A stretch of 63,930 nucleotides of DNA, filler included, from Atractiella rhizophila (GCA_021432655.1; 4 parts of 4 records of this genome joined end to end with filler, not necessarily neighbours in it); one strand, 5' to 3'; counted from the first letter of the whole stretch, positions 67 to 48,049 are shown. Numbers and translations: made by a program. The notes: a model not told the origin generated them from the letters alone.

Positions 67-2208
67 TTACGGCTCCAATCTACTGGGGTCTCTCGGGAAC
101 AAACTTGTTCTTCTAATGTTACCCAGCTTCAGGAAGAGCATAGTGATCCTCTCCAGTCCTATATCATCAACACGTCATGCATTAGCGCCAACGCAAATTG
201 TGAAGTGAACTAGACCGTACCGAATCCAGCACCGGCATGGGGGGGAGCACCCAGCTCAAAAGCGTCCACGTAACCCTTCATCTGCTCCTTCGAGATCCCG
301 ACCTTCTTCATCTGCTCCACCAAAAGGTTCGGGTCGTGCACTCGCTGAGCGCCAGAACAGATCTCCTCCCCGCGCATGAAGATGTCGTACGAGTTCGAAA
401 GTAAGGGATTGGACGGGTCGGGCATGGTGTAGAAGGGGCGGATGGCGGAGGGAAACTTGTCGATTATGTAGTAGTCCGTTCCGTATTTCTCTTTCACAAT
501 CACCCCGAGAGCCTTCTCCTGCTCCGTGCTATCCAAACCATGTCAGCATAAGTAGTGAACTTTCTGCGAACACACTTCATGTCGTCGTAGTCCCCAATCT
601 GGTAACCCTTCTCCCTCAACAACGCTATGGCATCCTTAAACTCCAACCTCAGCGTCTCCTCAAGCCACGTAAACTTCTCGTGTGGGAACTGCTTTGCGAC
701 CACCTCAATCTCCTTAGCGTACTCCCTTTGTAGCCCGACGAAGATAGATTTGAGGAGGTTGTCAAGAAGGTCAAGACACTCGTGATAGTGTGTTTGGAAG
801 GACATCTCCAGATCGAGACCCGTAAATTCCGTGAGGTGACGATGCGTGTTTGAGTTCTCAGCTCTGAAGACTGCCCGATTTGTCACAACATGAAAGGAGG
901 ATAGAAGGCAAGAAGCGAACCAGGGCCAATTTCGAACACTCGTTCCATGCCACCTGCAATGCACATCTGCTTGGCAAGCTGTGGTGACTGGGCGAGGAAA
1001 GCCTTCCCTGTGCTTCAAGAGTCAGTTTTGTCATAGGACCAAGAAAGTTAGCACACCGTCGAAATATTTGACCTCGAATACGCTTGCACCGCTCTCGGTA
1101 GCAGCTGCCTGAAGTTTCGGCGTGTGGATCTCGACGAAACCATTCTGCCTCAAGAACTGCTGGAAAAGCCATGTCACGCCAGAGGTGATGCGGAAGATGG
1201 CTTGGTTCGTAGGGCTCCGAAGATCAAAGACTCGATTCTCAAGCTGAGTGTGTTGCGTGACACGAACGAATTTGCTGTCGTCCTGTACTCCATATAGTTG
1301 AGCAAGCGAGGAAGATCAAGCGTACGAGGGAAAAGCACCTTCTCAAAGTCGGTTTCAGGGCGGATGGAGTCTTCGAGCACAAAGGGGAGTTGTGCTGGTG
1401 CCTCGCGCTCGATGAAAAACTGCACAAATCAGAATAGTGTACATGTCATCGGAATAATGGCACACTTTGTCGACAATGATCTCCCGGTTCCCAACGGTAC
1501 AGCTGTTGATTTCAATCTTCGGAATCTGGACCGTCCCCTCGACATAGACGATGGACTCGATCGCTGTCGAATCCGCAAATTTAAGCATGTGCTTTGAGAC
1601 GGTCTCAGGAGTCAGTGTAAGGATCGCTTGAACCGTTGAAAGACCCTGGCGCAAGGTGAAGAATTTCATCTTGGCTCCTTGGAAGCAAAGTTTGTTAAAT
1701 ATGCTCGATTTAGGTGAAAACAGAGCGAACCTTGCGACCGCAGATTCTGAACGTAGGCACGTAGATGTACTCTATCTCCATCTTTGGTTGTCTCCGGAAG
1801 CTCTGAGATATTATTTCGAGACTGAGCTGCTCAGATCCATCAGTGATTGGCCACGCTCGACAGTGGAACACGTACACAGCTTCTCTGTGCTTTGGTTCAG
1901 AGGCAGTCGTCCGTAATTTTGTGAGGCGTAATCCTTCACGCTCTCAGCCCAAGCATTCTGCATAACTAAGTAGGAGCTCACAACATCAGCAGCCTCTCTA
2001 GCAGCCTTCTCAGCTGCTTCCTTGGCCTCACGCTCAGCCTTCTTTCTCGCCTTCTCCTCCTCTTTCGCTCTCTTCTTTAGCTCATTCTTTGACAGTGGCT
2101 GACCATCTTCCCTGCACTCCACATCACATCGGTAACTGAGCTTGCATAACCTGACACATACCCTAGAATGGGAGTTGCAGCTGGTTGGGCTTGCGCTGCT
2201 GCAGACAT
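67..2208 (-). CDS. DPS1: Cytosolic aspartyl-tRNA synthetase (multi-exon)
   Basis: Exon translations: N-terminal K/E-rich helix ([21 protein letters not shown]), OB-fold ([13 protein letters not shown]), motif 2 ([23 protein letters not shown]), [29 protein letters not shown], motif 3 (PPHAGAG..GLER), C-terminal [14 protein letters not shown] at 2208, stop at 67-69, many short GT-AG introns. Confidence 0.96.
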
Positions 2209-2877
2209 AATGGATCGCGCTTGAAACGAGCTGGAAAGGGAAAACCTCGCAGATCTGTATGTGGTAGCAAAACGGCAGGCTGGGGAAACGCGTTTTATAA
2301 TGGTACAAGTCGAATCAGCCAAGATACGACGGTAGAGCATGCAAGTCAGTTCGACTGGGAAGATTTTGACGGGCCACAGGGTAGGGTTAGGGCCATTTGA
2401 AGTGTAATGCGTTCACCTTCACCTCCTGTTTCTCTCCCGTTTTGGTTGTATGAGCATTTTCACGGAAATTTAGGATTTCAACTCGCTAGGCGTGAATTTG
2501 AAGCCATTCCGAAAATGTCAAGCATTTGAAGGTGTGTGCTCTGAATATCTCAGGGACTGCAATGTGATGCCCGTATTCACAATTTGAATGCAAGTTCTTG
2601 ACTCTCCTTTCTTCTACTCAAGCTGGCCACATCTCTCTGCCACGAGCAAGGCGATTGTTCTATGACGCTACTCCACGGCGACGCCGCGCCTTTCAAATTC
2701 CAAGTTGTACAGTCGATCTGAAACATGAGATGAACTGCCACGGGGACAATGTGCTACTGGATAGCCAGATGAATCGGTTCCAACAAAACCGAAAGAGTGT
2801 AATGCGTGCATAGTTAAGTCAGTGAAACAGATCCAATGAAGCCATCATGATAATTCAGTTTCTAGTGTGACTGTATT

Positions 2878-4347
2878 TTAACTCCGCCTTGCTCCCCCTT
2901 TTTTCAACCAATCTTGGTATGGAACCAGCATTCTGTCCTTCGTCCCTTCCCCACGTTCAAACCACAGATCCACGGTTTGACCTCGTGCATAAAAGATCTC
3001 TCTAATGCTTTCCATGAAAGGTCCTGGTCCTCTAGAACCATAACCGTCAACTGAAACCAAGCCTAAAACAAGCTTTTCCAAACCGCAGGCGAATTTCGGC
3101 GCAGTTTTCTCGCTCGTTAGCAAGTCGAGCTCAGGTTGTACTCGATGATCGTCCCATGTACAATAATGGAGTGTCAGGTGAAAATATTTCAAGGAAGGAG
3201 CCAACAACTTGAAAAAGAATACGGGTCCGGGTGTATCGGTCCACATGGTGTTGATTTCGAGTGAAAGGAGACTGCGACATGACTGGATGATGTCTTGCAA
3301 GATGCGACAAAGGAGTTCTTGATTCCAAAGCCAGTCCTCATCTCCTTCATCATAAATCCAAAAAAAGTTTCCAAACCCGTCATATTCTGCCCATTTGAAG
3401 CTCAGCTCCTTCAATTGCTCCCCAAACTTCAGAAATGGCGCTGACCATATCTTCTCGTCGTTCGTGTCTCGTGCAGTCTCGCCGATGATGCGCGTATCGA
3501 GAAAATGAAGCCTCGAGAGGAAAGGAGAAAGTGAAAGGATGTCTTGAAGATCTGTCGGTGCAATTCGAGATTGGTAAAGCTTGAGACAGGTCAGAGTCTC
3601 CGTGAGGAATCGATTGTTTGCGGTGTTGAGACGAGAAACAATCTGTGGTGAGCGAAAAGATCCAGGTGTGCTGATGGAGGAAACTTGACGGAAAACAATC
3701 GTTGGGCAATGTGAGTGATCGAGCATTCCAAACACTGAGTTGATAATAAGGGCATCACGCACTGAAACTGTCCCAAATTCTAGAAGTTCGAGTTTCGGCG
3801 TTTTCGATGGGCAAAATAAATCACAGATCGACGGATCCAGATAGACTGCAGGGGGCATTGATACCATTCGAATACCTCGAAGCGAGTCGCTGCAGAGTTG
3901 GATAATGTCTGTAATCCCCTTCCTCCAATTTTCTATTTGTTTTCTACACTTGCTCCTGTTGTCTAGCTGCGCGCTGTTCAAGTTCTTTGCTTTCAATTCA
4001 CAATCTACCCTTTGCCGTTCGTATCGGCTCTCTTGGATAAACCTTTCGTCAAAGTCCGAGGCTCGTGGAACGAAAAGTATTTCACGAACATAGTGGGCAA
4101 GACTTGGTTTTGCGAGAAGGGTTGCGTGAAGTGTGCTGAGCTGGAAAGTGCTTTGAATGAACGGCTTCTTAAAAATGAGGGATTGACAAGCGGAAGCAAA
4201 TAGAGGCGATAGAATAGAGAGAGAAGATATCCAAGTGACAGAGTTGAGAGATCCGTGGCGCTTTGAGCGCCGCATATCAATTGAAGCGAGCACCAAAATG
4301 TGAACCATAATTTCGAGAGGAAGGTCATGGATTGGGCAAGTCTTCAT
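2878..4347 (-). CDS. F-box-like/LRR-like hypothetical protein, 489 aa
   Basis: Uninterrupted ORF. N-terminal IHDLPLEIMVHIL resembles an F-box start, followed by Leu-rich LxxLxL segments. Confidence 0.65.
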   Translation of the reverse strand: MKTCPIHDLPLEIMVHILVLASIDMRRSKRHGSLNSVTWISSLSILSPLFASACQSLIFKKPFIQSTFQLSTLHATLLAKPSLAHYVREILFVPRASDFDERFIQESRYERQRVDCELKAKNLNSAQLDNRSKCRKQIENWRKGITDIIQLCSDSLRGIRMVSMPPAVYLDPSICDLFCPSKTPKLELLEFGTVSVRDALIINSVFGMLDHSHCPTIVFRQVSSISTPGSFRSPQIVSRLNTANNRFLTETLTCLKLYQSRIAPTDLQDILSLSPFLSRLHFLDTRIIGETARDTNDEKIWSAPFLKFGEQLKELSFKWAEYDGFGNFFWIYDEGDEDWLWNQELLCRILQDIIQSCRSLLSLEINTMWTDTPGPVFFFKLLAPSLKYFHLTLHYCTWDDHRVQPELDLLTSEKTAPKFACGLEKLVLGLVSVDGYGSRGPGPFMESIREIFYARGQTVDLWFERGEGTKDRMLVPYQDWLKKGGARRS

Positions 4348-5344
4348 ACTAGTGGTTCAGCAGATAATCAGCTCATTGGGTTTGGCTGTGAATTAGGACT
4401 AGGACTCACTGTGGTGGGACTATCCTAGGCTTGAAATCAGACCTTCTCAGGGGAGGGCCAAACTTGGTCATGGTTTCGAGGTCAGGGGCGGCAAATAACA
4501 AATTCTCGTCTTTTCAATGTGGAAAGAGGTGGAATCAAGTTATTTAAGGAGGAAGAAATCCGCAGCAAGTTCCCGAGTCATTCGATCATTAAAATGCAGG
4601 ATTAATATTATTAATAATGCCTGCATCATGCGTCTAGATGCACGATCTGTCTCCCAACAAAACAAGCAAATGCGCTAACGAAGGCCAAGCTACAGATACA
4701 TGACTTCCTCTTGAAGTCATAGCAGTTATGGGGCATGCGGATTGTGACTGAGTTCGGGAGTCCTAAAAGCCCAGGGAGCAAGTTGCAGCGACAATGATAG
4801 CCTCAACAGGTTTCCTGGAAGAGATTGAAGCCCTGAGGCAAATCTCCTCACGAGAGGATGCGCCTCGATCTTTCACCATCAACTAGTCTCAACCATAAGA
4901 AAACGCTTTAACACGCTCCTACTGCCCTCGAGCCTGAGAATTGCGAAAGACAACCTGATGGCACGAGTTCTTGATAGCGTGAGATACAGAAAGGACTATC
5001 GTAAAAAAATTATGCCGCAGCACAATATTTTTGATCAGGTTGGCGATATCAAACGTATATCAGGTGTTCGCAGTCAAGCAGAATGCGAGACACTCATCAT
5101 CGAGTAATAAGCGTAATTATGGCATGAAAAATGGTTAGCAGGATCCCTACCTTTGACTCAAAAGAACATCACACTTCGCGACCTAGTACTCAGCACCATC
5201 AGCCTTAATAAGCGCACCACATAGCACCCCTACATCCACTCGCACAGCTCTGCCGCTCACTCAGCGCTCCATCTCGCCGACTTAGGCTTATCCGCTCGTC
5301 CCCCTTAAACCACTTCTCTTCTGTATAAATCTACAGCCGTCCGG

Positions 5345-5952
5345 TCATATCATCCCAAATCGTCGCAATATTTTAACCAAGAGAGATTGTCTCAAAAGAG
5401 TTCGTTCAGCAAATATTCGCCCATTGTGAAAAGAACGAGTGGGACGAGTTCTGCACGTATCTCGACCCGGATGTACGCTGGTGAATAAATGATGATAAAG
5501 AAGATGACTACACCCACACTGGAATATATGTTGGTATCAAACATCAGTCTCTATTCTAGCTCTTGGTGCAAACGAAACTGTCGGGACAGAACGTGGCAAG
5601 CTGGAAGGAAAAGTCGGCGTGCCATCGTGGGCAAGATTGAAGGATGGGGTGAATACGATGAAATCTCAAGCTTGAACGTGAGCCTTTCCTCATCTTGATG
5701 CGAATATGTGGCTGAGGATCGTCTCAGGTGTTCGGCAACCTTTCTATCGCGGAATGCGTAGGAAACGCAACACAAAAGAACGGACAGCGTTACAAAAATA
5801 CGCGCCTCTCTTGCTCATTGAGGAGCGTGGACTGATGGGTTGGCGACGCAGATTCGCTTGGTTCTTGATGAGGAGACGGGAAAGGTGAAGGAAATTACGG
5901 AGTATATGAATACTGATCATGTGACAGATTGATGAGGAGTAATGAACCTTGA
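5345..5952 (+). pseudogene. SnoaL/NTF2-like protein, apparently disrupted
   Basis: Fragments IVSKEFVQQIFAHCEKNEWDEFCTYLDPDVRW, IAECVGNATQKNGQRYKN, FAWFL and DEETGKVKEITEYMNTDHV fit a SnoaL-like fold. TATAAAT at ~5324. No clean ATG; frame break between FAWFL and DEETGK. Boundaries approximate. Confidence 0.55.
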
Positions 5953-6295: not shown

Positions 6296-7674
6296 GTCTG
6301 AAGTTAACCGTGGAAACTCTTTCGGCAGGTGACCTGATGGTTACACGCAGGAACTCTATTTTGCCGTCAGGTCTCCTGCTTACCACCAACATGCAGGTTT
6401 GGACTTAGCATTTTTCCTTTGGCGAAGGGTCGTGAGGTTGTAGGGTTAGGGTAGTTTTTGGGCACCCAAACGACATCGACGATCCAATCCAACGAATATG
6501 CCACAATCTTACTCACACATCCCTCTCCAAGTCATACACCCACCTCATAATGCCTCTCAGGTACTCCGATGTGTCTGCTGTGAAATCCGCTTCGTAATGG
6601 ACCAATACTGGCGAAAGTGAATGAAGAAAGATATGGGGTTTTGTGCCAAGCAGGAGAAGATGCTCAACGACAGAGTGAGGTGGGAAACCGCTGAAGGTGC
6701 GTCGTATGCTCGTTAGTGGTAGGGAGGAACAGGAAAATTGGGTGGCACACAGCATCGAAAACAGTGGTGTGGCGACAATGCTTCGACTTGCATCATTTCT
6801 GGTGAGGAGAATTCCGATGAGACCAACAAGTTAGTATAGGGTTCCTTCTATGAATGTTCAAAAGACAGCTTTGTTTTGCCTTCTAATATATTGGGGGACA
6901 GCAAGACAACCAGCCTACCTTGAACGCTCAAATGCAAGGTCCTCCACATCAACAGTGTGATAGCTTGAAGAAGCATGCCCGTGTTATTGCTACTTAATGA
7001 TGTGGAAGAGAGGCTCGATTACGCTCTTGGAGGGGAAAGATCGTGGCAGTTCCGAAGGTTAATGTAAGTATCTTCTTTGTTTGTTCTCTTCTTGGTTCCA
7101 AATTGCACCGGAGACTGATGAGATGGAACTTTGTTAGGTATCTTTTACATGCTCAGAAGGTATGCTTTTCCTTTGCTTGAGTGATTTCTGGCCATGCTAA
7201 TTGCTTATGAGTCAGGGAAATAAATTAGTATGTTCGCAAGTATGATTCGTGAGTAATCTCTATCGCATCGGATGAAGCTGGTTCATGAGTCAACCAAGGA
7301 ATAATTTTGGGTCTGATAAGGATGAGTTACCACAATTATATGACACTAAATAGTACAATGCATTCGTAATCCCAACATAATCCTCACAGGTGTCCCAGTG
7401 CATTTAAGAGGTGTAAAGAAACCGGGGAAGGGAGGAGCTGTAACCAGTGCAGGAGTTTACCATCAGGTACGCGCAGGTCCCCTGCCACCAGCCATCAGGT
7501 TCTTGCAATATAGCTGATGGCTGGCAGCAGGCCACCTGACGATTGGACAAATCGCCGCAATCAGGTCGCCTGATGGAATTTCAGCAGGTAGCATGCTCGT
7601 AACCGGAAGGTCGCCTGCTGATTTTAGCGGCAGGCCACCTTCCGAAAAGCTTTCTTCGGTGAGTTGCTTCAGTG
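6296..7674. mobile_element. Degenerate non-autonomous TIR DNA transposon, possibly CACTA/CMC-like
   Basis: Imperfect inverted ends: left CTGAAG..TTCGGCAGGTGACCTG versus right reverse complement CACTGAAG..TTCGGAAGGTGGCCTG. Seven subterminal CAGG-N3-CCTG palindromes or near-matches at 6326, 6368, 7474, 7528, 7562, 7607, 7631. No transposase recognised. Confidence 0.55.
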
Positions 7675-8483
7675 ACGGTCGACATGGTTAAGACAGCAGT
7701 ATTGTCGGCAGAATTCGGAATAAAAAACAAGACTGGCTGATAGAAAGTATTTCACAGGCATTGTGCTTGCAAAGAGAGTGTGAACATGCTTGCATATCAC
7801 CACAGCTGAAGGAGAGAACCCGAAAACTCTCACCAAAGAGCCTTTCTCAGGCTCGATGTTTGCCTCACTAGCACCCAGAAGCCTCCAATTTATCTCCCTG
7901 TCAAGTTCTCAGGCTGATCGGGTATCTAGTGGCATCCCGCTTGCGACGGAGCCGATGCGGTCGGCTTGACCTTCGGCGAAATTTTGGCACTTTCGACTTC
8001 AACCCTTGTCAAGTTTGGTTTGGAGTTTGGGACATTTTGGGATGATTCTGGCAGGATTAGGGGAAAGTGGGAAGCCGCCCGCTCGCAAGTGAACTGGCTG
8101 AGTGGCTGCGCAAACAACAACGACTGATTGTGAGATTTGGGACAGGATTTGGAGCAGAATGGGACTTTTGGGACTGTTTCGTTCTCATTCGCTAGGCGCG
8201 CTGAGATCGACCCGACGTGGTGAGCATTTCTGTGGTCAAGTACAGGTACTCGCTGAAGCAGCTTGAGAGGCAGCATTCCGACGCAGACTGGGACTTGCAT
8301 GGCAACACTTTTTCTTTGCAGCTCGCCAGTTTGGGCTAGGTTGTCTTCTGGCATAGGCGGAATGGAAGTCTTAGACAAGAGTGTATGCTTAGGCTCGTTC
8401 CTTCCATTGTGAGTGATTTAGCTAATTCCGTCTCGCCCTGACCTGAGCGGACTTGTGGGTCAGGAAGATGTCCTGGAACCCTT

Positions 8484-8973
8484 TGTTAGGGCTAACACTA
8501 TGTGCGGTCGCCGATAGGCGATGCGTCTGTAGTGGAGGTAAACCTAAGAGAATGATATGGCGTGAGAAGACTAACCTGTAGTGGAGGTAAACCTAAGAGA
8601 ATACTCTGAGGTCACCCCCACTACATCTCGATGTATATATACATAAGTAAAGGCACTGCCATAAACTGTAACATAGGTTACTTGAAACGTGTAAGATAGC
8701 TAGATCAGGAAAGTAATAAAGGGAATACTCGGAAATAAGATATACTGGGTAGTACTAGTGAGAAAGGACAATAAGGCGAAAATGGAGACGGTGCAGACCG
8801 GCGAAATGTATAAGGTCCGCTGAGCGGCGATTCGTGTGAGGAATGGAAAAGCGGCGAACAGCGCAGACCCCTGCAGAGCGGCGATGGGTAGGTACGTGAT
8901 CACATGACACGGTAAGATGGGTCACGTGACTTCGGATGGTGCATTTCGGTAATGCGTGGGGGCAAGCCTGACA
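8484..8973 (-). repeat. 3' LTR, 490 bp
   Basis: Ends TGTTAGG...CCTGACA (TG..CA, 6/7 inverted match). Directly preceded on the minus strand by a G-rich tract. The second LTR is not in view, so identity and TSD (candidate CCCTT, 8479-8483) cannot be confirmed. Confidence 0.8.
8527..8602. repeat. 27-bp perfect direct repeat inside the LTR
   Basis: CTGTAGTGGAGGTAAACCTAAGAGAAT at 8527-8553 and 8576-8602. Confidence 0.95.
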
Positions 8974-8990
8974 ACACCCCCCAAATTCTT
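8974..8990 (-). other. Polypurine tract (PPT)
   Basis: Minus strand AAGAATTTGGGGGGTGT directly abuts the LTR start TGTCAGG. Confidence 0.7.
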
Positions 8991-9098
8991 GACTGGCGTG
9001 CTTGAGTCACGGAATTTTTAGGTTAAGGTTTGCGGTTAGTTGGGGCGAAGATTTTTCCCAGTTCTTCCACCATCTCCCGCTCTTCTTTTCGTGTAAAA

Positions 9099-10614
9099 AT
9101 GTCAACCGACGCACAACTCTTCGACTTTGTCCTGGCGAACAAGGATAGAAAGGAGAGCACAGTTTACTGGGATGTGGAGAAAGCGAAAGAGGTGAATTTC
9201 GGGCGATTTGCCGATGTGTTGGAGTGGGGGAAAAGGTGTTATCCTCTGTATGTCACATTTTGTGATGAAGTACAAGCAGAGGTAGGATTTCTTGTCTTGG
9301 ATGGTATGGTTGGGTGTATGTGGTGACCCGTCGGCGGTGGGAAAGGTGCGAACGGTTTATGAGTCTGCGAAAGGGTTTGGTGATGGGCGCGTTTTGTCGT
9401 TCCCGCTGCGGATGTCTGTGGAAGACATGCAGGTCTTGCGGGATGATCTTCGGCTTTGGGTGGAACAAGCAGCGCTCGTCGAGGAAGAAGCGGCGAAATT
9501 CGGGTTTCAGCCCTCTGAATCGGCGAATGGGGACCCCGTTTTGCGAAGGAAAGAACGAGAACTTTTCTTGTTTGACACGAAAAAGCGTCTGGCGAAAGAG
9601 GAGGAGGAACGAAAACGAGCGGCGCTCGAAAATAAGCGCCGAACGGCTGAGGAAAATTTACGCGCTCAAAAATCGATCTCAGCGGCGAAGGGGTCCGAGG
9701 TTGGGGTTGTGAGGGCGTTGTCTGACCATCTGGTGACTGCTACTACTTTTGTTTTGCCTGCTGCATTGGGGGACCGAAATCCGTTCGCCGGTGCGCCAGT
9801 CGCCGAATTTGTAGTGCGCGACGGGAAAGTTCGAATAGGCGACAAGGAATTGGACGCATCGAAATACAGATACTTTTGGCCAGGTACTCGCGATGCCTAT
9901 TCTCATGCTGCTGCGAACATCAACTTGGGCGAATTGGACCTTGAATTGGTTATCACGACTCCTCGGGCGAATGCCCGTATTCTTCCCACGTTGGCAAGCA
10001 TCGGGACGCAACGATGTAGTAACTGTACCGGAAAAATTCGAGCGGCGCCTGTCAAATCGGCGAAAAAGAAGGCCAAGGCCGACAACGACTCTCAGGTGTG
10101 CGACTTTTCTGCTGGGCACGTCGCGACCGCATTCGGACGGGTTTGTTCGCGTTGTCACAGTTCGCGAAAGAGGTGCGAGGTTTTGCCTCTGGGATATTTG
10201 CGAGAGCTATCGATGTTAGTCGTGATGTCGACTGCGTTCCACCCTAAACGCATCGGCGATGGGAAAAAACGTCCCTCCGCTGTCGCTGAGAGCAACTACG
10301 AGAACCTATCGGACGTCGACGAAGACTCTCCTGCGCATTCGATGCTTAGCGCCGCTCGGTTGTACTCCGAAGCGTTCAGCATGAACTTCGCGCAAACGAT
10401 GCTCGCGGCCGCCAGGTTGAATGCTCAAGCAGCGGCGGATGCTCTTAAGGCCGCCGAGTTGCAAATGGAATTGTATAGAAGGAGGCAGGATGATCGTGCT
10501 GCGGAGGATGGGGCTAGCGAGGGTTCTGTGCTGGAAGGTGTGGTAGCCGATGTGACTGGTAGGGTGAGTCTACCTGTTTTCGGCGATCCGTCTGACTATC
10601 TAGATGTTGTTTAG
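9099..10614 (+). CDS. Retrotransposon-borne antisense protein (~483 aa) with coiled coils and a Zn2Cys6-like six-cysteine cluster
   Basis: AAAATG start at 9099. Exon 1 (9099-9281, MSTDAQ..VQAE), putative 64-nt phase-0 intron 9282-9345 (GTAGGA..GGTGAC..AAG), exon 2 (9346-10614) in frame. C-x2-C-x24-C-x14-C-x2-C-x6-C at 10015-10176. Confidence 0.75.
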
Positions 10615-11221
10615 GCATCGTAGGGCACCTAACTCTTCGCCAGTTGTACAAAAGTCGTCGCATCGGCGAAATCGAGTTTCGACTCGGCGACTTAAAACCT
10701 TCGTTGGCTCAGGAGGCCTATGACAATTCCAATTATGACGTGTATTCTGTTTCTGCTTCGAGTAGTAGTGATAGTGAGGAATCCATTCGGAGCGGCGATT
10801 TTGAACTTTGAAATATATGTTTTGTGTCTCCGTATTAGCGGCGAATAGCCAAGCGGCGACAAGGGTAAACCGTGTCATGGTGGCATAAGGTATTGTGGTG
10901 AGTGGGGAGAACAGTGGCAAAGTGGGTGATGCAGGACTCACACTCCCCTGTCTAGGGGAGGACCCTCAGGCGTTCCTCCCACTAGCTACCCAAGCTTATT
11001 ATGGAGCTCGCAACCAAAATAGGCCTGGGCCACGCGTTCGTGGACACAACGCGCAGTATAACATGTCGGCGATTTGCGTGCTCGTCGCCGGTCTGTCTCC
11101 TTTGTGGAAGAATGTGTTGTCGAGCGAACAAGGATGGGGAAGCAAAAGGTAAAAGCAAAAAATAGGAAACAATAATCATCAAAACCAAAACAGAGTGGAG
11201 GATGAGGGGAAGTCGTTGTGT

Positions 11222-11661
11222 ACCTCGCAATTGAGGGATTTTTGAAGTTTGACCGGTATTGTTTTGGTGCAGTAAGCAACCGTTTGTGAAAATGGGGTGA
11301 GTAACTCACCGACAAACCGGTCGCCGATCTGTCCGTTAAGGAACAGACCGGCGCCTCGCTTAGACCTATGTTCAACAGTGTAACTAGGGATTCACCCAGC
11401 GAGGCGTATAGAGGAGTAGGACCTCTTAAAGTGATGGGGAGGGGACCTCGTGATTGAGGGCAATTTTCGTAAATGCGACATTGGTGATGGTGCGAGAACG
11501 CAATGAGCATTCGTCCTTGACGGGCAACGAATGGACTCACCAACGACCAAGTCGCCGACTTGTCCGTTGAGGAACAAGTCGGCGCCTTGCCTCGACCTAA
11601 GTATCAAAGACTAGGATTTCACCCGGCAAGGCATATAGGGGTGTTGGACCCCTTAAAGTGA
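11222..11661. repeat. Two diverged tandem copies (~11222-11434 and ~11445-11661) of a multi-stem structured element directly 3' of pol
   Basis: Same order of stems in both copies with compensatory changes, e.g. GCCTCGCT/AGCGAGGC versus GCCTTGCC/GGCAAGGC, and AGAGG/CCTCT versus AGGGG/CCCCT. Confidence 0.8.
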
Positions 11662-14600
11662 GGAAGGCCCTTCAGCACGTTTTCGTCGAAGGTTACGAAA
11701 ACGCGCATTTGGGCGATTTTTGGCGGAGTTCGGTATGGGGTCGGGACGAACTGCGAGAGGGTGTGCAGTGTGATAGTCTTTTATAGCATCTTGTGAATTT
11801 TCTAGTTCTGTGATGTTGATCCACTCGTCCTCAGATGGTGAATACCCTTTATATTGAACGCGATATGTGAAAGCTTTCTTTCGGGTACCGAACCACTTCC
11901 CATCTACTATTTTTTCTACTTCCCATTCCTCAATTCCATTCACCAATTCCGGAGGTGGTTTAGGTAACTGGATTCTGCCAGGGATGTCGTCTCTGTTGAC
12001 TTTTCGTATTAGGCCCACATGGAACACTGGGTGTATCTTCCATGAGGGTGGTAACTCGAGTTTGAGGTTGAGAGGACCCAAAACTTGCAGAACTCGAAAA
12101 GGGCCATGCCATTTGTCGTCCAACTTTTTCACCGGCCTCGTCGACTTGATGTTTTTCGCACTCAACCAGACGAAATCGCCGACGTGGTATTCGGGCGCCG
12201 GTGCGCGTTTCCTGTCATAATGTTTTGCCATGAGGTCTGCTGCTTGCTCGAGTGCTGCTCGTGCTTCTCGGTCGGCGATTTTCATCTTCTCGACGAATTG
12301 TGCTGCTGCTGGAACGTCTTCGTCGGAGATGGGTTCAAAGGCCATGCGTGGATGTTGGCCACAATCGAGCGAAAATGGAGTTACGCCCGTCGCCGAACTG
12401 ACGCGATTGTTGAGCGCAAATTCTGCGTTGGGAAGTCCTTCCACCCAATTATCTTGAAGGTGATTGCAGAAAATGCGCAAATATTGTTCAACCTCTTGGT
12501 TCATGCGTTCAGTCTGACCATCACTTTGCGGGTGATAGGCTGTCGATGGTGAACCTTTGATACCTAATAGGCGAAAAAGCGCGGATGTGAATTTGGACAC
12601 GAACTCTTTGCCTCGATCGAAAATTGCGACATCGAAAAGTCCATGCAACTTCCATACGTGATCGCGAAAGAGTCTTGCAAGGCCTTCTGCATCCATCGTC
12701 GAATGGGTGGGGATGAGATAGGTGCGTTTTGAGAGTCTGTCTACTATGACGAAAATCGTGTCGAACCCCCCAGATTCTGGGAGTGGTCCAACCAAATCCA
12801 TGCTGACAATTTGCCAGCGACGTGTGGGAATGTCATTTGGTTGCAAAAACCCGACAGGTGGGGAAGGAAAGTTTTTCGTTCTGTGGCAAGTGTGACAGGC
12901 GCCGACATAGCGGCGAACGTAGTGCGCTAAACCTGGCCACCAATAGTACCTTTTTACTAGAGCTGTCGTCGATTTTACGCCTGGATGACCGGCGATTTGC
13001 GAATCATGTAGGTCTTGCAAAATCGAGCGGCGAATTTCATCGTCGCGGGGGACGTAGAGTTTTCCGCGAAAGTAGACAGCACCATCGACTTCTTGCCACT
13101 CCCGCCGGCGAATTGCGTTGACTGGTTCGTCAAGGATCTCTCTCAAGGCTTTGACTACTTGTTCTTCTCGTTCAGGTACCTTTTTCACGCGTTCCAGTAT
13201 ACTCAACTCCGACATTTGTCTAGTGAGCGCAACCGCGCTCCCAGTCGCGTTGATCGTGATACGATCCGTGTTGAAAAAGCGTTCTGGGAGTAACACTACA
13301 TCAAAGTTGTCGCAAGTCGTCGGTTTGTGATCCGGTCGCCGACTGAGCGCATCTGGTTTTGCGGAGTTCCGCCCAGGACGGTGTAAAAGTGTGAAGTTGA
13401 AAAATGCAAGTTCAGTGATCCAGCGTGCCTGTCGGCGATTCAACTTCTGCGGCATTCTGAAATACTCAAGGTTTTTGTGATCGGTCAAGATCAGAAATGG
13501 CTCATCAGTACCCTGTAGAAGGTGTCTCCATTCTTGCAGTCCCCGCATAATCGCGAGCATTTCTTTGTCGTAGGTGTCATAGTTCCTCTGGGCAGCGTCA
13601 AGCGATTTTGATACGAAACCGAGAGGATGAAACTTCCCATCTGGTTTCATTTGTGACAAAACGGCGCCTGTCGCGAAATTTGACGCGTCGACTTCGAGTA
13701 AAAATCGTCCTATTTGTTCGGGATGTGCCAAAACGGGCGCCGAAATCATGAGCTGTTTCAAAGCGGCGAACGAACGTCGTTCATCCACCCCCCAGACCCA
13801 GGAAATCTCTTTTTTGGTTAGTTCATATAAAGGTCTTGCGATGTGACTAAATCTGTCGCAAAAGCGGCGATAGAAATTAGCGAAACCAAGGAACATTTGG
13901 ACTTCCTTCATGTTTTTCGGTTCCGGCCAATCCATCACTCCTGCAACCTTTACTGGATCCGGTTCGATCCCTCTGCTGGTAATGATCAATCCTAGATACG
14001 CTACTTCGCTTTGACACCAGACACATTTCTGTAAGTTAACATAAAGCCCATTTTCGCGCAAAATTTGACAAACTTCTCGAACGCGTTCCCAGTGTTCTTC
14101 TTCAGTTTCTGTCGCAATTAGGATGTCGTCAATGTATATGAAGATGAACGCAGCGGCGATCATCGCGCGGAAAATAGAGTTCAGGAAAGCTTGGAAAGTC
14201 GCCGGTGAGTTGCAGAGCCCGAAATACATTACCAATGGTTCGAAAAGTCCTCGATTTGTGCGAAACGCCGCTTTGTGTTCGTCTCCTTCTTTGATACGAA
14301 CGTTGTTGAACCCTTTCCTCAGATCAATCTTGCTGAAAAACTTCTTACCAGAAACCATGGAAAAGAGGTCAGCTTGAATGGGGAGTGGGGTCTTATCTTT
14401 GACTGTGGCTTCGTTCAGCTTTCGATAATCGAAAAGAGGACGAAGTTCGGAGGAGTCTTTTTTGTGCGTGAAAAAAACAGAAGCTCCATGTTCACCTGTG
14501 CTAGGACGTATACGACCCGCGGTCAGTTCGGCGTCAATGAATTGGTCGAGCGCCGCTTGTTTGTCTTTTTTCAGGGGGTAGACCGGGCCCGCATATGGTC

Positions 14601-15446
14601 GTGATTCGGGTATGAGGTTGATCGCGTGATCCCAAGGACGTCGGGGAGGAAGAGAAGTTTTGAATTTTTCGTCGTCGAAAATGTCCGCAAAATCGGCGAT
14701 TTGCGTTGGTATTTCGACGACACTTCTTGGTCTCATCGCCGCTGCGTCCTTCGCCAGTTTCTGCGATTTTGTCATAGCGGCTAGTATCAAGGTCGACGAT
14801 GGCGGGAAGTGTTCGCGAGTGGTAGACACGTCATCTGCATTGCAACTGGTAGGGCAACGAGAGAACTCAACTTTCCCTGAGTCCCAGTTGATCTCTGGGT
14901 TATGGTGTCTTAGCCAGTCGTGGCCCAGAATCATGTCGACAGTCCCTAAGTCTGCTACAGCGAATTGCCAAACCTCATGGTGAGCGGCGATCGAAATGGG
15001 CAAGTAAGTGACAGAATGGATGGATCCACCTTGATTGAGAGATCCGTCGATGTTATAAACAGGTACTGGGGAAGGAAGTTGAGTGACAGGTAGGTTGTAC
15101 GCAGAAACGAGTTTTGGAGAAATAAAAGAAGTAGTTGCGCCGCTGTCGACGAGCGCCGATGTGGCCTGTCGGCGATGGGAATGTGGATGGTGGAATGCGG
15201 TTCTGAGCTTCGTCTTCGAACTGACAAGAGATGCTGTTGTCGAGCGTAAGTGGACTTTGTCGTACATTTTCGCGACTTCTGCGCATCTTTGCCTCCAGGA
15301 GGGAAAACGCAATTTCGGGAATGGGGAGTCTTGCTCAGACGGGGGGAATACTGTGCTGGGCGGCATTTTGTTGGAAGTGATTTTAGATGACGTAAATGAA
15401 TTGCAAGTCGGCGATGGGGACACTTCTTCCACCCACCACCGTCCTA
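11653..15446 (-). CDS. pol: Gypsy Pol polyprotein: protease, RT, RNase H, integrase, chromodomain
   Basis: Open 1259-aa frame with ALVDSGAT (protease), YIDD (RT), EVDAS..NYDTYDKEMLA..TDHKNL (RNase H), H..H..CHTC plus the SMDLV/FDRG/QTER catalytic core and GPF (integrase), and EEWEVEKIVD..YKGYSPSEDEW (chromodomain). Confidence 0.97.
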
Positions 15447-15453
15447 AAAATCC
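15410..15453 (-). other. -1 ribosomal frameshift signal (gag-pol)
   Basis: Slippery G GAT TTT (15453-15447) just before the gag TAG. pol is in the -1 frame. Stem GGTGGTGGG/CCCATCGCC starts ~6 nt downstream. Confidence 0.75.
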
Positions 15454-15953
15454 TCCTCAAGATCTTTCGATTGGGTAACACTCGTTTTCGGCGACTGGTC
15501 AGCGAATTGTCGTTCTTGGTGCATCATTTTTGAATCAAAATATTCTCCTTGAGCTCGGAGATATTGCTCCTTGTTCATAATCGTTCTACACTCCCTTTCC
15601 CGGTGTCCTATCTTTTGGCATCGTCTGCAACGGGGAGGTCTAGACTTTGTCGCGTCGACTTCCATGTCATCGGGATCTTTGGCCCTATGAGCGTGTGGAG
15701 CGGCGTTGGGTGACGGATCGGCGACCGGTGACAAGGCGGCGCTCGGTCGATACGATACGGGCGTTCTGTTCTCTCTGTGCTTTGAGGATTTTGAGCTGTC
15801 CCTTTTTGCAGAAAACGTATTTTGTGGTCCGTCTTTCGCCGATGGGATGTTTCGAAAGAAGGTTGAATGAGCAGATTCTTCCGCATCAATTCGCCGAGAT
15901 TTTTCTTTCCAGTCTTCCAGCGATTTTGGGAACTCTCCTTGGGTTACTTTGAG
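15444..15953 (-). CDS. gag: Gag C-terminal part (truncated by gap)
   Basis: DPDDMEVD motif, then the CCHC knuckle CRRCQKIGHREREC, ending EEDF*. Confidence 0.88.
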   Translation of the reverse strand, partial: LKVTQGEFPKSLEDWKEKSRRIDAEESAHSTFFRNIPSAKDGPQNTFSAKRDSSKSSKHRENRTPVSYRPSAALSPVADPSPNAAPHAHRAKDPDDMEVDATKSRPPRCRRCQKIGHRERECRTIMNKEQYLRAQGEYFDSKMMHQERQFADQSPKTSVTQSKDLEEDF

Positions 15954-16033
15954 NNNNNNNNNNNNNNNNNNNNNNNNNNNNNNNNNNNNNNNNNNNNTTA
16001 ATTAATTAANNNNNNNNNNNNNNNNNNNNNNNN

Positions 16034-16396
16034 NNNNNNNNNNNNNNNNNNNNAGCAGGGTGTGGGGAGGATTGGAGGCGGGGAGGGAGGAGAGGAGGGA
16101 CTCGGCTGCAGAGGTGTTCGAGTTGTAATTTAGCAGGATTGTCGCTCCTTGGGCGGCGAGGGTGCGTGAAATCTATGAACCATTGTCAAGTCTCGCAGAA
16201 GCAAGGGCAATAATGGGCTTACAGCTGCTCCAATCCCCCTGAAGGATGATGTTGATTCAGTCGATACTAACATGACTCGTGGAAATTGCTTACCTCGATC
16301 CACCGGTTACTGTGTAATACAATTAGAGATAGATTTTGAGTAAAGCTAGAAGGAAGACCTACCAAGCGCAATCTTGCCAGCGAGTACAGTGGACAT
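16034..16396 (-). CDS. Short-chain dehydrogenase/reductase, 5' part (rest in gap)
   Basis: Spliced reading [41 protein letters not shown] gives the TGxxxGIG motif, split across two 16-nt exons. Confidence 0.85.
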
Positions 16397-25260: not shown

Positions 25261-25451
25261 GTGCTAGAAGGACGAAAGAGGGAAAGAACGAGGGTGCGTC
25301 AGCATGTAGGATGATGTGCGTCGGGCAAAGAGGGCAGCATCACTGCTGCATTACAAGTGCTAGAAGGACGAAAGAGGGAAAGAACGAGGGTGCGTCAGCA
25401 TGTAGGATGATGTGCGTCGGGCAAAGAGGGCAGCATCACTGCTGCATTACA
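25261..25451. repeat. Perfect tandem duplication, 95-bp unit (period 96)
   Basis: GTGCTAGAAGG..GCTGCATTACA at 25261-25355 and 25357-25451. Confidence 0.95.
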
Positions 25452-27553: not shown

Positions 27554-28809
27554 ATGCCCATGCACAAAGCGGCCATCGTCCCGTCACTCAAGGGGGGATT
27601 CATCGTCCAAGACCTTGAAGATTCCGTACCGAAGAAGGGACAAGTACTGATCAAAGCCGTCGCTTGCGCCTTGAACCCTGTGGATGCATTCAGACACGAC
27701 ACTGGTGCGATGTGCCCCGCTTACCCTATCGTCCTCGGGAGTGATGTCGCAGGAATCGTAGAGGAGCTGGGAGAGGGTGTGAGCAGGTTCAAGAAGGGCG
27801 ACAGAGTGTAAGTGACACCTTCGTCAATGTGCCCCGGTGTGGATAGATGGCTGATACGCAGCGATAGGATGGCTGGCGTGATGGATGGTTGTTTCAGGCA
27901 ATATGTGGTCTTGAATGAAGATGTCATTTTCAAGGTAGGTAAAAATCGCCAAAACTATAATATCATGAAACGTAGATTGATTATTCGTTAGGTTCCCGAC
28001 AACGTCAGTTTCGAAGAAGCCGCCACGATGCCCTGCTGCTTGGGGACGGCGATGATAGGGTTATTTGACAACGCGCCGCAGGGAATCGGTCTCAACCCTT
28101 CCTTCACGTTCAAACAGCCTTCTCATACAGGTGAAAAGGCGCTCGTTATTCGCGGGAGTTCATCCGTAGGCCAATTCGGTGCGTCATTACACACTCTTGC
28201 TTCTTCACTCTTCGTTCGTCCGCTCGATGGGACTAATGGCTGCGGCGCAAAGGAATTCAGCTGCTTAGATGGCTGGGATTCACTGAGATTGCCGCGTACG
28301 CATCTGAAAAACATTCCGCTCACCTCCTCTCTCTCGGAGCCACGAAGGTGCTCGACCATTCCAAAGTTACACTGGGAGATCTCCGAAAGACAATTTCAAA
28401 CTTTGACGTCGTCTTGGATGGTCTCTCCACTGCGGAATCGCAGGCTGCGAGCCTAGATTGTTTGAAGGAGGGAGGGAAGGTGGTGAACGTGATGTTGCGA
28501 TTCCCTGAAGGGATTGAAGAGCGTTTGAAGGCCGAGAACAAAGTCGGAGCGAAGGTTTATGGTCTTTTTGACAGGAGCACAATAACCGAAGGCTGCTCAT
28601 GATGGAGTCCCCAGGCTGATGCAAGAGAGGTTGTTGGTCGTATGTCTTCTTTCTTCATCACTGAATCTGGGAGGTGATGCAGTTATTTATAGGGAAATCG
28701 ATACGAAATTTTGCCGGGAGGCTTGTCAGGAATAGAGGCAGGTATTGGTCGCATAAGGAATAAAGAAGTTAGCGGTATAAAGCTAGTAGCTCGACCTTTC
28801 GACGAGTAG
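27554..28809 (+). CDS. Zinc-binding dehydrogenase/enoyl reductase-like protein (MDR family), frameshifted near 28590 as assembled
   Basis: ALNPVD, GSDVAGIVEELGEGVSRFKKGDRV, SFEEAATMP, GSSSVG, C-terminal VSGIKLV. TATA at ~27482. One extra A relative to the copy at 31409. Confidence 0.85.
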
Positions 28810-31408: not shown

Positions 31409-31955
31409 TCGTTCGTCCGCTCGATGGGACTAATGGCTGCGGCGCAAAGGAATTCAGCTGCTTAGATGGCTGGGATTCACTGAGATTGCCGCGTACGCAT
31501 CTGAAAAACATTCCGCTCACCTCCTCTCTCTCGGAGCCACGAAGGTGCTCGACCATTCCAAAGTTACACTGGGAGATCTCCGAAAGACAATTTCAAACTT
31601 TGACGTCGTCTTGGATGGTCTCTCCACTGCGGAATCGCAGGCTGCGAGCCTAGATTGTTTGAAGGAGGGAGGGAAGGTGGTGAACGTGATGTTGCGATTC
31701 CCTGAAGGGATTGAAGAGCGTTTGAAGGCCGAGAACAAAGTCGGAGCGAAGGTTTATGGTCTTTTTGATAGGAGCACAATAACCGAGGCTGCTCATGATG
31801 GAGTCCCCAGGCTGATGCAAGAGAGGTTGTTGGTCGTATGTCTTCTTTCTTCATCACTGAATCTGGGAGGTGATGCAGTTATTTATAGGGAAATCGATAC
31901 GAAATTTTGCCGGGAGGCTTGTCAGGAATAGAGGCAGGTATTGGTCGCATAAGGA
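31409..31955 (+). repeat. Near-identical copy of 28212-28759 (3' half of the MDR gene), flanked by gaps
   Basis: Differences seen: one SNP (28572 C versus 31769 T) and a 1-nt indel. Confidence 0.9.
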
Positions 31956-32055
31956 NNNNNNNNNNNNNNNNNNNNNNNNNNNNNNNNNNNNNNNNNNNNT
32001 TAATTAATTAANNNNNNNNNNNNNNNNNNNNNNNNNNNNNNNNNNNNNNNNNNNN

Positions 32056-47572: not shown

Positions 47573-48049
47573 AAACTTGCAGAGAGGAGAGTGAATGAAG
47601 TAAGAAGGGATCAAGGAAGTGTAGAGAGTGGAGCTAAGCGAGTGGGAGCTGATAGCAATAAGGGAATGTGTCAGTTTTATTCTGCTGATGGAAACCATCT
47701 GGCCACTGTTTTAAAGAATAAAATGGAAATTGTTCATGGCCGCAAGCCAGCCAGAGCAGCTTCAAGCAGTTTGAAGCATGCAGTGAAGATGTATGTTCAT
47801 CTTCAGAAGCCTCATAAGCCTCCACCGGAAAAGGGAGATACTCGTTGGATGGCTGACGATGTTAGTAAAGCAAAGCAAAGGAACCTCCACTGCGGCTCCT
47901 ACTTCCTGGGCATCTGGAATGCTTCTGCTCACGGTCATGAAGAGGCACGNNNNNNNNNNNNNNNNNNNNNNNNNNNNNNNNNNNNNNNNNNNNTTAATTA
48001 ATTAANNNNNNNNNNNNNNNNNNNNNNNNNNNNNNNNNNNNNNNNNNNN

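Follow-up and report, generated by a model that had tools for sequence, protein, structure and literature searches.

The stretch of DNA analysed here (the window; 63,930 nucleotides of Atractiella rhizophila, GCA_021432655.1) carries on its minus strand a long terminal repeat (LTR) retrotransposon and, in the interval from pol to this element's 3' LTR, a gene that runs in the opposite direction on the plus strand. The window consists of four separate pieces of about 16 kb each, joined by N44-TTAATTAATTAA-N44 linkers at 15954-16053, 31956-32055 and 47950-48049; features must not be read across the linkers, and the retrotransposon itself is cut at 15953. Its pol product matches the Pfam families RVP_2 (residues 100-200), RVT_1 (331-492), RT_RNaseH (584-684), Integrase_H2C2 (806-862), rve (879-976), SH3_Tf2-1 (1093-1153) and Chromo (1178-1229), all above the Pfam cut-offs, and the resulting order of protease (PR), reverse transcriptase (RT), RNase H, integrase (IN) and chromodomain is the one by which a chromovirus is recognized. 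The minus-strand element is a chromovirus, that is, a Ty3/Gypsy LTR retrotransposon with a chromodomain. Judged from sequence, the plus-strand gene is probably a family-specific antisense accessory gene ('aORF-3R') of this Atractiella-type chromovirus: a long frame between pol and the 3' LTR, antisense to the element, present in several copies and conserved in them as a protein.

Structure of the antisense gene and its surroundings

Between 9286 and 10614 the plus strand holds an open frame of 442 codons, a length with a chance of about 1.6e-10 at the local composition, and it lies opposite to pol in the 2,679-nt interval between pol and the LTR, inside the LTR edge and the polypurine tract. 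The ATG at 9099 is the first in the exon-1 frame and has an A at position -3. No frame reads through the unspliced sequence, the exon-1 frame being stopped at 9324-9326 and the exon-2 frame being open only from 9286, and only the exact removal of 64 nt, which joins 9281 to 9346, unites both frames in a 483-residue product (...DEVQAE/VRTVYES..., with the slash at the junction). The putative intron has GT..AG ends, a branch-like GTGAC 20 nt from its 3' end and a length typical of fungi, as is expected of a spliceosomal intron; its splice signals (donor GTAGGA, acceptor AAG) are moderate and depart from the consensus. The first-pass annotation, which was made from the sequence alone, had recognized a chromovirus, a long plus-strand frame opposite to gag-pol inside the polypurine tract and LTR edge, and a 61-residue upstream exon joined to it in frame through a 64-nt GT..AG intron with a branch-like motif; the domain order of pol, the 442-codon frame opposite to minus-strand pol and the sequence features of the exon and intron all agree with that description.

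The boundaries of the element were located with the contigs of two genomic runs (X1 and X2), aligned to 7500-15950 at a likeness of at least 85%; both runs come from one sample, possibly the window's own source, and are not independent. Precisely at 8484, 26 records of X1 and 23 of X2 run on into flanks that are unlike one another (agreement 0.38-0.39), and 11 records of X2 do so precisely at 8973 (agreement 0.45). Because the contigs diverge into dissimilar flanks exactly there, the LTR ends at 8484 and 8973 are true element termini, and the earlier reading, which depended on 8484-8973 being the LTR of this element, stands on TG..CA ends as well as on these flanks. No partner of the LTR was found within the window; since the linker cuts the element at 15953, the remainder of gag and the 5' LTR fall beyond the piece at hand, and this absence says nothing about the 5' LTR. 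The sense-strand run directly beside the LTR, TTTGGGGGGTG, resembles a polypurine tract and includes a run of six G, the plus strand showing its complement. Within the LTR, a perfect 27-nt direct repeat occupies 8527-8553 and 8576-8602 of the R/U5 part. Two palindromes, GTGATCAC and TCACGTGA (G-box-like), lie at 8896-8903 and 8922-8929, close to where the LTR ends on its inner side and some 170-200 nt upstream of the ATG of the antisense gene.

Table 1. Coordinates of the antisense gene and of the chromovirus features around it
Feature	Position	Strand	Basis or remark
3' LTR, 490 nt, TGTCAG...CTAACA on the sense strand (TGTTAG...CTGACA on the plus strand)	8484..8973	-	Terminal sequence and contig breaks
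Four CGGCGA sites in U3 (8799, 8825, 8852, 8879)	8799..8884	+	Spacing 26-27 bp, unrelated sequence between
Polypurine-tract-like run adjoining the LTR, sense strand AAGAATTTGGGGGGTGT	8974..8990	-	Sequence; function inferred from position
Leader, LTR edge to ATG, 125 nt	8974..9098	+	Without ATG
Exon 1, 61 codons, MSTDAQLFDFVL...	9099..9281	+	89-97% identical to N-termini of 6 Atractiella gene models
Putative spliceosomal intron, 64 nt, GTAGGA...GTGAC...AAG	9282..9345	+	Sequence; junction common to P0004 and P0005
Exon 2, conserved coding part, 406 codons	9346..10563	+	Helices, KYRYFWPGT core, cysteine cluster, Ala-rich helix
Six-cysteine cluster C-x2-C-x24-C-x14-C-x2-C-x6-C, Lys-rich loop	10015..10176	+	Translation; pLDDT about 30
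Doubtful last 16 codons and stop, possibly a second intron	10564..10614	+	Donor AGG/GTGAGT, CTGAC, AG at 10602-10603 and 10613-10614
Non-coding spacer, antisense gene to pol stop	10615..11652	.	Holds a 52-nt direct repeat
pol, 1267 codons, uninterrupted: protease, RT, RNase H, integrase, chromodomain	11653..15456	-	Open frame and Pfam
gag 3' part with CCHC knuckle; pol in -1 frame relative to gag	15444..15953	-	Ends at the linker at 15954

Copies, relatives and protein-level constraint

Relatives of the antisense protein were sought with a word-indexed search of 5.8 billion proteins, an exhaustive phmmer search of 1.84 billion cluster representatives and a profile search. Together these yielded seven relatives, all of them hypothetical proteins of Atractiella rhizophila with 62-92% identity, which are to be annotated as copies of a transposon gene. 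Six of the seven gene models begin with the exon-1 peptide and its ATG, at 89-97% identity, and exon 1 is conserved like exon 2. The 9281/9346 junction is used by two of these six (P0004 and P0005). The models differ at their ends: the start of P0003 falls within the LTR (at the position that corresponds to 8782), P0009 starts downstream at an internal methionine, and P0004 leaves the frame right after ...TGR, at the equivalent of 10564.

One genomic copy of about 87% identity begins in the LTR just short of its edge and continues unbroken across the leader, exon 1 and the 64 nt into exon 2 (records 8963-9888 and 8963-9433), and a 9281/9346 joint is absent from the 15 of 20 joints listed for the genomic contigs. 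The first-pass annotation had argued that an intron can outlive retrotransposition only if it is antisense to the genomic RNA, and the retention of the 64 nt in the 87% copy, without a skip, is what that argument leads one to expect. All 30 depth bins are covered. Summed depth, which is a sum over contigs and not a copy number, was 108,000-259,000 over the LTR, 11,000-34,000 over pol, 3,000-5,600 over 9192-10883 and 450-3,000 over the left flank. These values show that the interval with the antisense gene is repeated, though to a lesser degree than pol. The antisense gene is multi-copy and travels with the element. In one X2 contig the sequence continues after 10168 with GGGTTAGGGTTAGGG..., and one copy of the element appears, from this contig, to break off within the antisense gene, where telomere repeats cap it.

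The differences among copies carry the evidence for constraint on the protein. Nine differences fall in the two exons among the best-supported 40 of 877, seven of them at third positions and eight of the nine synonymous (seven of eight in exon 2), a count that rests on nine sites chosen by their support and is therefore a small sample, from two runs of one sample of DNA that may be the window's own source; for pol, 10 of 21 differences among the same 40 are synonymous. By our own arithmetic, eight of nine would arise with a chance near 1e-3 if about one third of substitutions were synonymous. Small as it is, this set of differences argues for selection having preserved the frame as the family diverged. 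The earlier reading required a frame that recurs in other copies, and both the seven paralogues and the synonymous bias are in keeping with one. The copy differences as a whole are mostly transitions (in run X1, A>G 132, C>T 169, G>A 149 and T>C 143, with 20-34 for each transversion).

The protein product and the readings of the gene

We consider it likely that the antisense frame represents a working coding gene, borne by the element and spliced. Its promoter would lie on the inner edge of the 3' LTR or slightly within that edge, its transcription would run inward, separately from the genomic RNA, and the pre-mRNA would then lose the 64-nt intron. Introns persist through reverse transcription only if they are antisense, which is the established logic of retrotransposition assays, and we propose that this intron owes its survival of retrotransposition solely to its antisense orientation relative to the reverse-transcribed RNA. 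The mRNA would encode a protein of about 480 residues with basic stretches that resemble, by eye, nuclear localization signals, with long helices that could pair and with a six-cysteine module. In favour of this reading, the partner genes are intact, pol being uninterrupted and gag being -1-coupled to it. Tentatively, we suggest that the protein binds nucleic acid in the nucleus and regulates how its own element is expressed or replicated, a suggestion which we make because of the analogy with the proteins of Grande gene23 and Retand TRP28 and with HBZ of human T-cell leukaemia virus (HTLV).

The cysteine pattern given in the first-pass annotation, C-x2-C-x24-C-x14-C-x2-C-x6-C, is found on translation from codon 10015; P0003 has the identical pattern, and P0006 and P0008 retain part of it. 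Its tentative assignment there to the Zn2Cys6 class was not supported. Zn2Cys6 domains follow the spacing C-x2-C-x6-C-x5-12-C-x2-C-x6-8-C. The module shares with the Gal4-type domain the six cysteines, a canonical second half (C-x2-C-x6-C), basic residues after the second cysteine and possibly dimerising helices, but it differs in a loop of x24 instead of x6, a linker of x14 instead of 5-12, a place in the middle of the protein instead of at the N-terminus, and the lack of a match to the PF00172 hidden Markov model at E<=10, also for the isolated peptide. Searched as four parts at E<=10, the frame gave neither Zn_clus (PF00172) nor Transposase_28 (PF04195), the best matches being the CxxC-type DUF2039 (0.024) and Zn_ribbon_IS1595 (0.069), both below the cut-off, and a sequence search of the PDB returned nothing meaningful for the protein or for the cysteine region. 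The Zn2Cys6 assignment is unsupported on three counts: the spacing of loop and linker, the lack of PF00172 and the lack of a confident fold. A second lead, DUF3716, came from the ESM Atlas, in which the best scores were 0.82 and 0.85 (all <0.9) and clusters that partly carry DUF3716 scored 0.78 and 0.84; it was dropped as Pfam gave no confirmation. The module probably binds zinc, and a zinc-binding, basic, helix-flanked module is a reasonable description of the cysteine region.

Structure prediction, which the first-pass annotation had proposed for the cysteine peptide, was carried out with AlphaFold2 on exon 2 using an alignment of eight sequences, and gave a mean predicted local distance difference test (pLDDT) score of 49.2. 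Helices were predicted at exon-2 residues 25-51, 64-114 and 329-389, with pLDDT 76-94 in the best-modelled stretches. The conserved core and cysteine region, including the peptide in question, reached only 26-40, and a separate AlphaFold2 model of that part had a mean of 34.8.

Several observations weigh against a functional, spliced coding gene, in addition to the small number of sites behind the synonymous bias. The three protein searches found no relative outside Atractiella rhizophila, Pfam gave nothing for the whole frame at E<=1 except DUF6720 at 0.055, and the protein is, as far as sequence comparison can tell, an orphan without a known domain. The models give no confident fold for the cysteine region, and at such pLDDT a fold comparison with Gal4-type domains is meaningless. 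Most of the paralogue models are broken or chimeric, and only P0003 keeps all six cysteines. P0008 runs into a weak DUF4218 stretch (residues 284-358, E 3e-4, below the cut-off), a domain which we take to be associated with DNA transposases, and is probably, from its sequence, a chimeric annotation across nested elements. The remaining four of the six exon-1 models, which are predictions, splice elsewhere, around local damage. Contigs over the gene sum to a depth 3- to 10-fold below that over pol and one contig joins 8973 directly to 11703, which together imply that many relatives of the element lack the module or carry a very different one.

Several of these observations are the strength of a first alternative, in which one subfamily acquired the module, by capture or de novo, and it simply rides along as a passenger, its open frame reflecting youth and not function. 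An orphan protein without a domain, annotated paralogues that are mostly truncated or chimeric, and a module missing from many relatives would all be expected of such a passenger. The distribution of the module among other chromoviruses points the same way. We compared 80 chromovirus loci from metagenomes, with 37-49% pol identity, and found a relative of the antisense protein in none of the 80 (tblastn with both exons; chance-level matches only, E>=1.7), and a scan of metagenomes with the protein profile gave 431 pattern matches and no relatives. In the eight related loci with detectable LTR pairs the pol match ends 84-749 nt from the LTR, versus 2,679 nt here; the module is absent from all eight, and none has room for such a gene (>750 nt from pol match to LTR). 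Because none of the 80 loci encodes a relative, because the eight with LTR pairs have no room for the module, and because of the contig that joins 8973 to 11703, the antisense module looks, on these comparisons, like an addition in one lineage, a point that belongs equally to the case for a family-specific accessory gene. Against a passenger stand the eight synonymous differences in nine, a skew at least that of pol, and the fact that exon 1, junction and exon 2 are all kept in a copy that has diverged by about 13%; we regard a mere passenger as unlikely.

In a second alternative the gene is real but built differently. It could lack the 9282-9345 intron and start at an internal methionine (MSVEDMQVL, as in P0009), or it could include a further 5' exon within the LTR (compare P0003), a second intron that begins at 10564, or both. 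The merely moderate splice signals, the other junctions of four of the six exon-1 models and the downstream start of P0009 speak for a change at the 5' end, and a consensus donor (AGG/GTGAGT) at 10564, together with a 1-2-nt insertion at 10576 in most of the contig depth, for one at the 3' end. The conservation of exon 1 as protein, with its ATG in all six models that contain it, is hard to explain if exon 1 is untranslated, and no other removal than that of the exact 64 nt joins the two conserved frames; such a rearranged structure therefore seems to us quite improbable.

We give very little weight to the idea that the antisense RNA itself is the functional product, through double-stranded RNA or copy-number control as in Ty1, the open frame being incidental. 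Antisense RNAs of Ty1 exert copy-number control, and an antisense transcript that reaches over the genomic RNA at its 3' end would form a duplex with that RNA. The available parts of PMC7264820 raise the possibility of such pairing for plant elements. A 442-codon frame whose divergence is biased towards synonymous changes is not expected of a non-coding RNA. Least credible of all is an independent gene or other mobile element nested by chance in one chromovirus lineage, for which one could cite a depth below that of both neighbours, rearranged copies with opposite-strand joints between 10661 and 11707 and the end of P0009, which resembles the opposite strand of the spacer, but which has against it the lack of terminal repeats or duplications around the module, a depth that is never above that of the LTR or pol, and the conservation of the junction between LTR edge and exon 1 in the diverged copy.

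An accessory gene in this place has counterparts elsewhere. The portions of PMC7264820 and PMC11963269 consulted report antisense open frames situated between pol and the 3' LTR for Grande (gene23, maize), RIRE2 (rice), Retand (Silene) and PvRetro13, so that the first-pass annotation was right to point to plant Gypsy elements. As described in those portions, the plant frames resemble ours in their position, their antisense orientation, the long interval, the presence of several copies, the repeats in the interval and a suspected nuclear or DNA-binding regulatory role. They differ in that the present host is a basidiomycete and the present element a chromovirus, Retand being described there as a non-chromovirus, and in the intron proposed here, the word 'intron' occurring 0 times in PMC7264820 and PMC11963269; the TRP28 domain of Retand and Grande (PF04195, Transposase_28) has no match in our frame at E<=1 for the whole or E<=10 for the parts. 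Among fungi, the excerpts of PMC7264820 credit Boty, from Botrytis and Sclerotinia, with an antisense gene in this same interval, and those of PMC4227169 give Boty-like elements as gag-CCHC-PR-RT-IN-chromo plus brtn, which are also mentioned in the part of PMC8365987 available. Boty is thus, like our element, a fungal Gypsy element with gag, CCHC, protease, reverse transcriptase, integrase, chromodomain and an extra antisense gene; its host is an ascomycete, and the comparison is with brief descriptions that do not cover a brtn intron or the exact position. No Botrytis or Sclerotinia protein is among the relatives in the three protein searches, that is, there is no detectable homology to brtn.

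HBZ of HTLV-1, a vertebrate retrovirus, is encoded by an antisense spliced gene read from the 3' LTR side, and is a nuclear regulator of the basic leucine zipper (bZIP) type. The present gene would resemble it in being antisense, spliced and on the 3' LTR side and, as we suggest, in encoding a nuclear regulator; it differs in host and protein class and has no sequence likeness to it, and LTR-driven transcription is, for the present gene, a proposal. HBZ is mentioned in the part of PMC11963269 consulted. In the literature searched we found neither a basidiomycete case nor an intron in such genes, though either may still exist in print; the word 'antisense' has 0 occurrences in the fungal LTR surveys PMC3248453 and PMC2864245, and a search for literature on retrotransposons of Atractiella rhizophila found none. 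The present gene is an unrelated further case of an antisense-gene layout that has already been described.

Accessory genes are what separates complex retroviruses from plain retrotransposons, and few LTR retrotransposons outside plants are known with one, brtn of Boty being the sole fungal case met in the literature searched. With an intact copy from a basidiomycete root endophyte, functional questions can be put to a tractable, conserved and apparently spliced antisense gene, which is also a case from nature of the rule that introns outlast reverse transcription only in antisense orientation.

The CGGCGA motif and other features of the window

The element is densely marked with the hexamer CGGCGA. 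Between 8484 and 15953 there are 44 sites, 31 on the plus and 13 on the minus strand, the four phased sites of U3 among them, and the whole window has 69, versus 23.3 +/- 4.7 (maximum 36) in dinucleotide shuffles of the whole window. The density is 5.9/kb in the element versus 0.44/kb in the other 56 kb (about 13-fold), and 0.11/kb, with a maximum of 0.66, in the 80 related loci, to which the element is about 50-fold superior. CGGCGA is the most over-represented hexamer of the element (32 observed versus 2.8 expected, a count that includes one site beyond the linker). Its flanks are informative, with C at -5 in 29/44, A at -2 in 29/44, T/G at -1 in 38/44 and G at +9 in 27/44, which extends the motif to the 15-nt CNNAKCGGCGAHNNG, and in about half of the sites the core is the palindrome TCGSCGA. 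In pol, 18 sites were observed versus 3.24 +/- 1.71 (maximum 9) in 2000 synonymous-codon shuffles, and in exon 2 eight versus 2.46 +/- 1.42 (maximum 7) in shuffles of the same kind; since the counts go beyond these shuffles, neither protein sequence nor codon usage accounts for the motif.

Candidate readers of CGGCGA are the antisense protein, the gag nucleocapsid on RNA, and a host factor. Nothing relevant was found in the literature on TCGGCGA or TCGCCGA as a known binding site. That the element encodes its own sequence-specific DNA- or RNA-binding protein and has studded itself with the sites of this protein is in our opinion a long shot, though the array and the antisense protein make a concrete, testable hypothesis of protein and binding site. 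Should the antisense protein bind the CGGCGA sites, the two would form a retrotransposon self-recognition system, and this could serve transcriptional self-activation, copy-number control, the tethering or nuclear handling of complementary DNA, or protection from silencing.

The spacer between the antisense gene and pol contains a 205-codon minus-strand frame, which, like the neighbouring large frames of the window, has no Pfam match. The two copies of its 52-nt direct repeat (11383-11434 and 11610-11661) are 83% alike and 227 nt apart, and the second extends over the stop codon of pol. In their minus-strand frames the two copies share the peptide GA(D/G)LFLNGQ(V/I)GD, and the repeat looks, from these sequences, like a duplication of the pol 3' end in the spacer. 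Elsewhere in the window, a 548-nt repeat (99.6%) lies at 28212-28759 and 31409-31955, its second copy adjoining a gap of 615 N and possibly being an assembly artefact, and a perfect 95-nt tandem duplication occupies 25261-25451.

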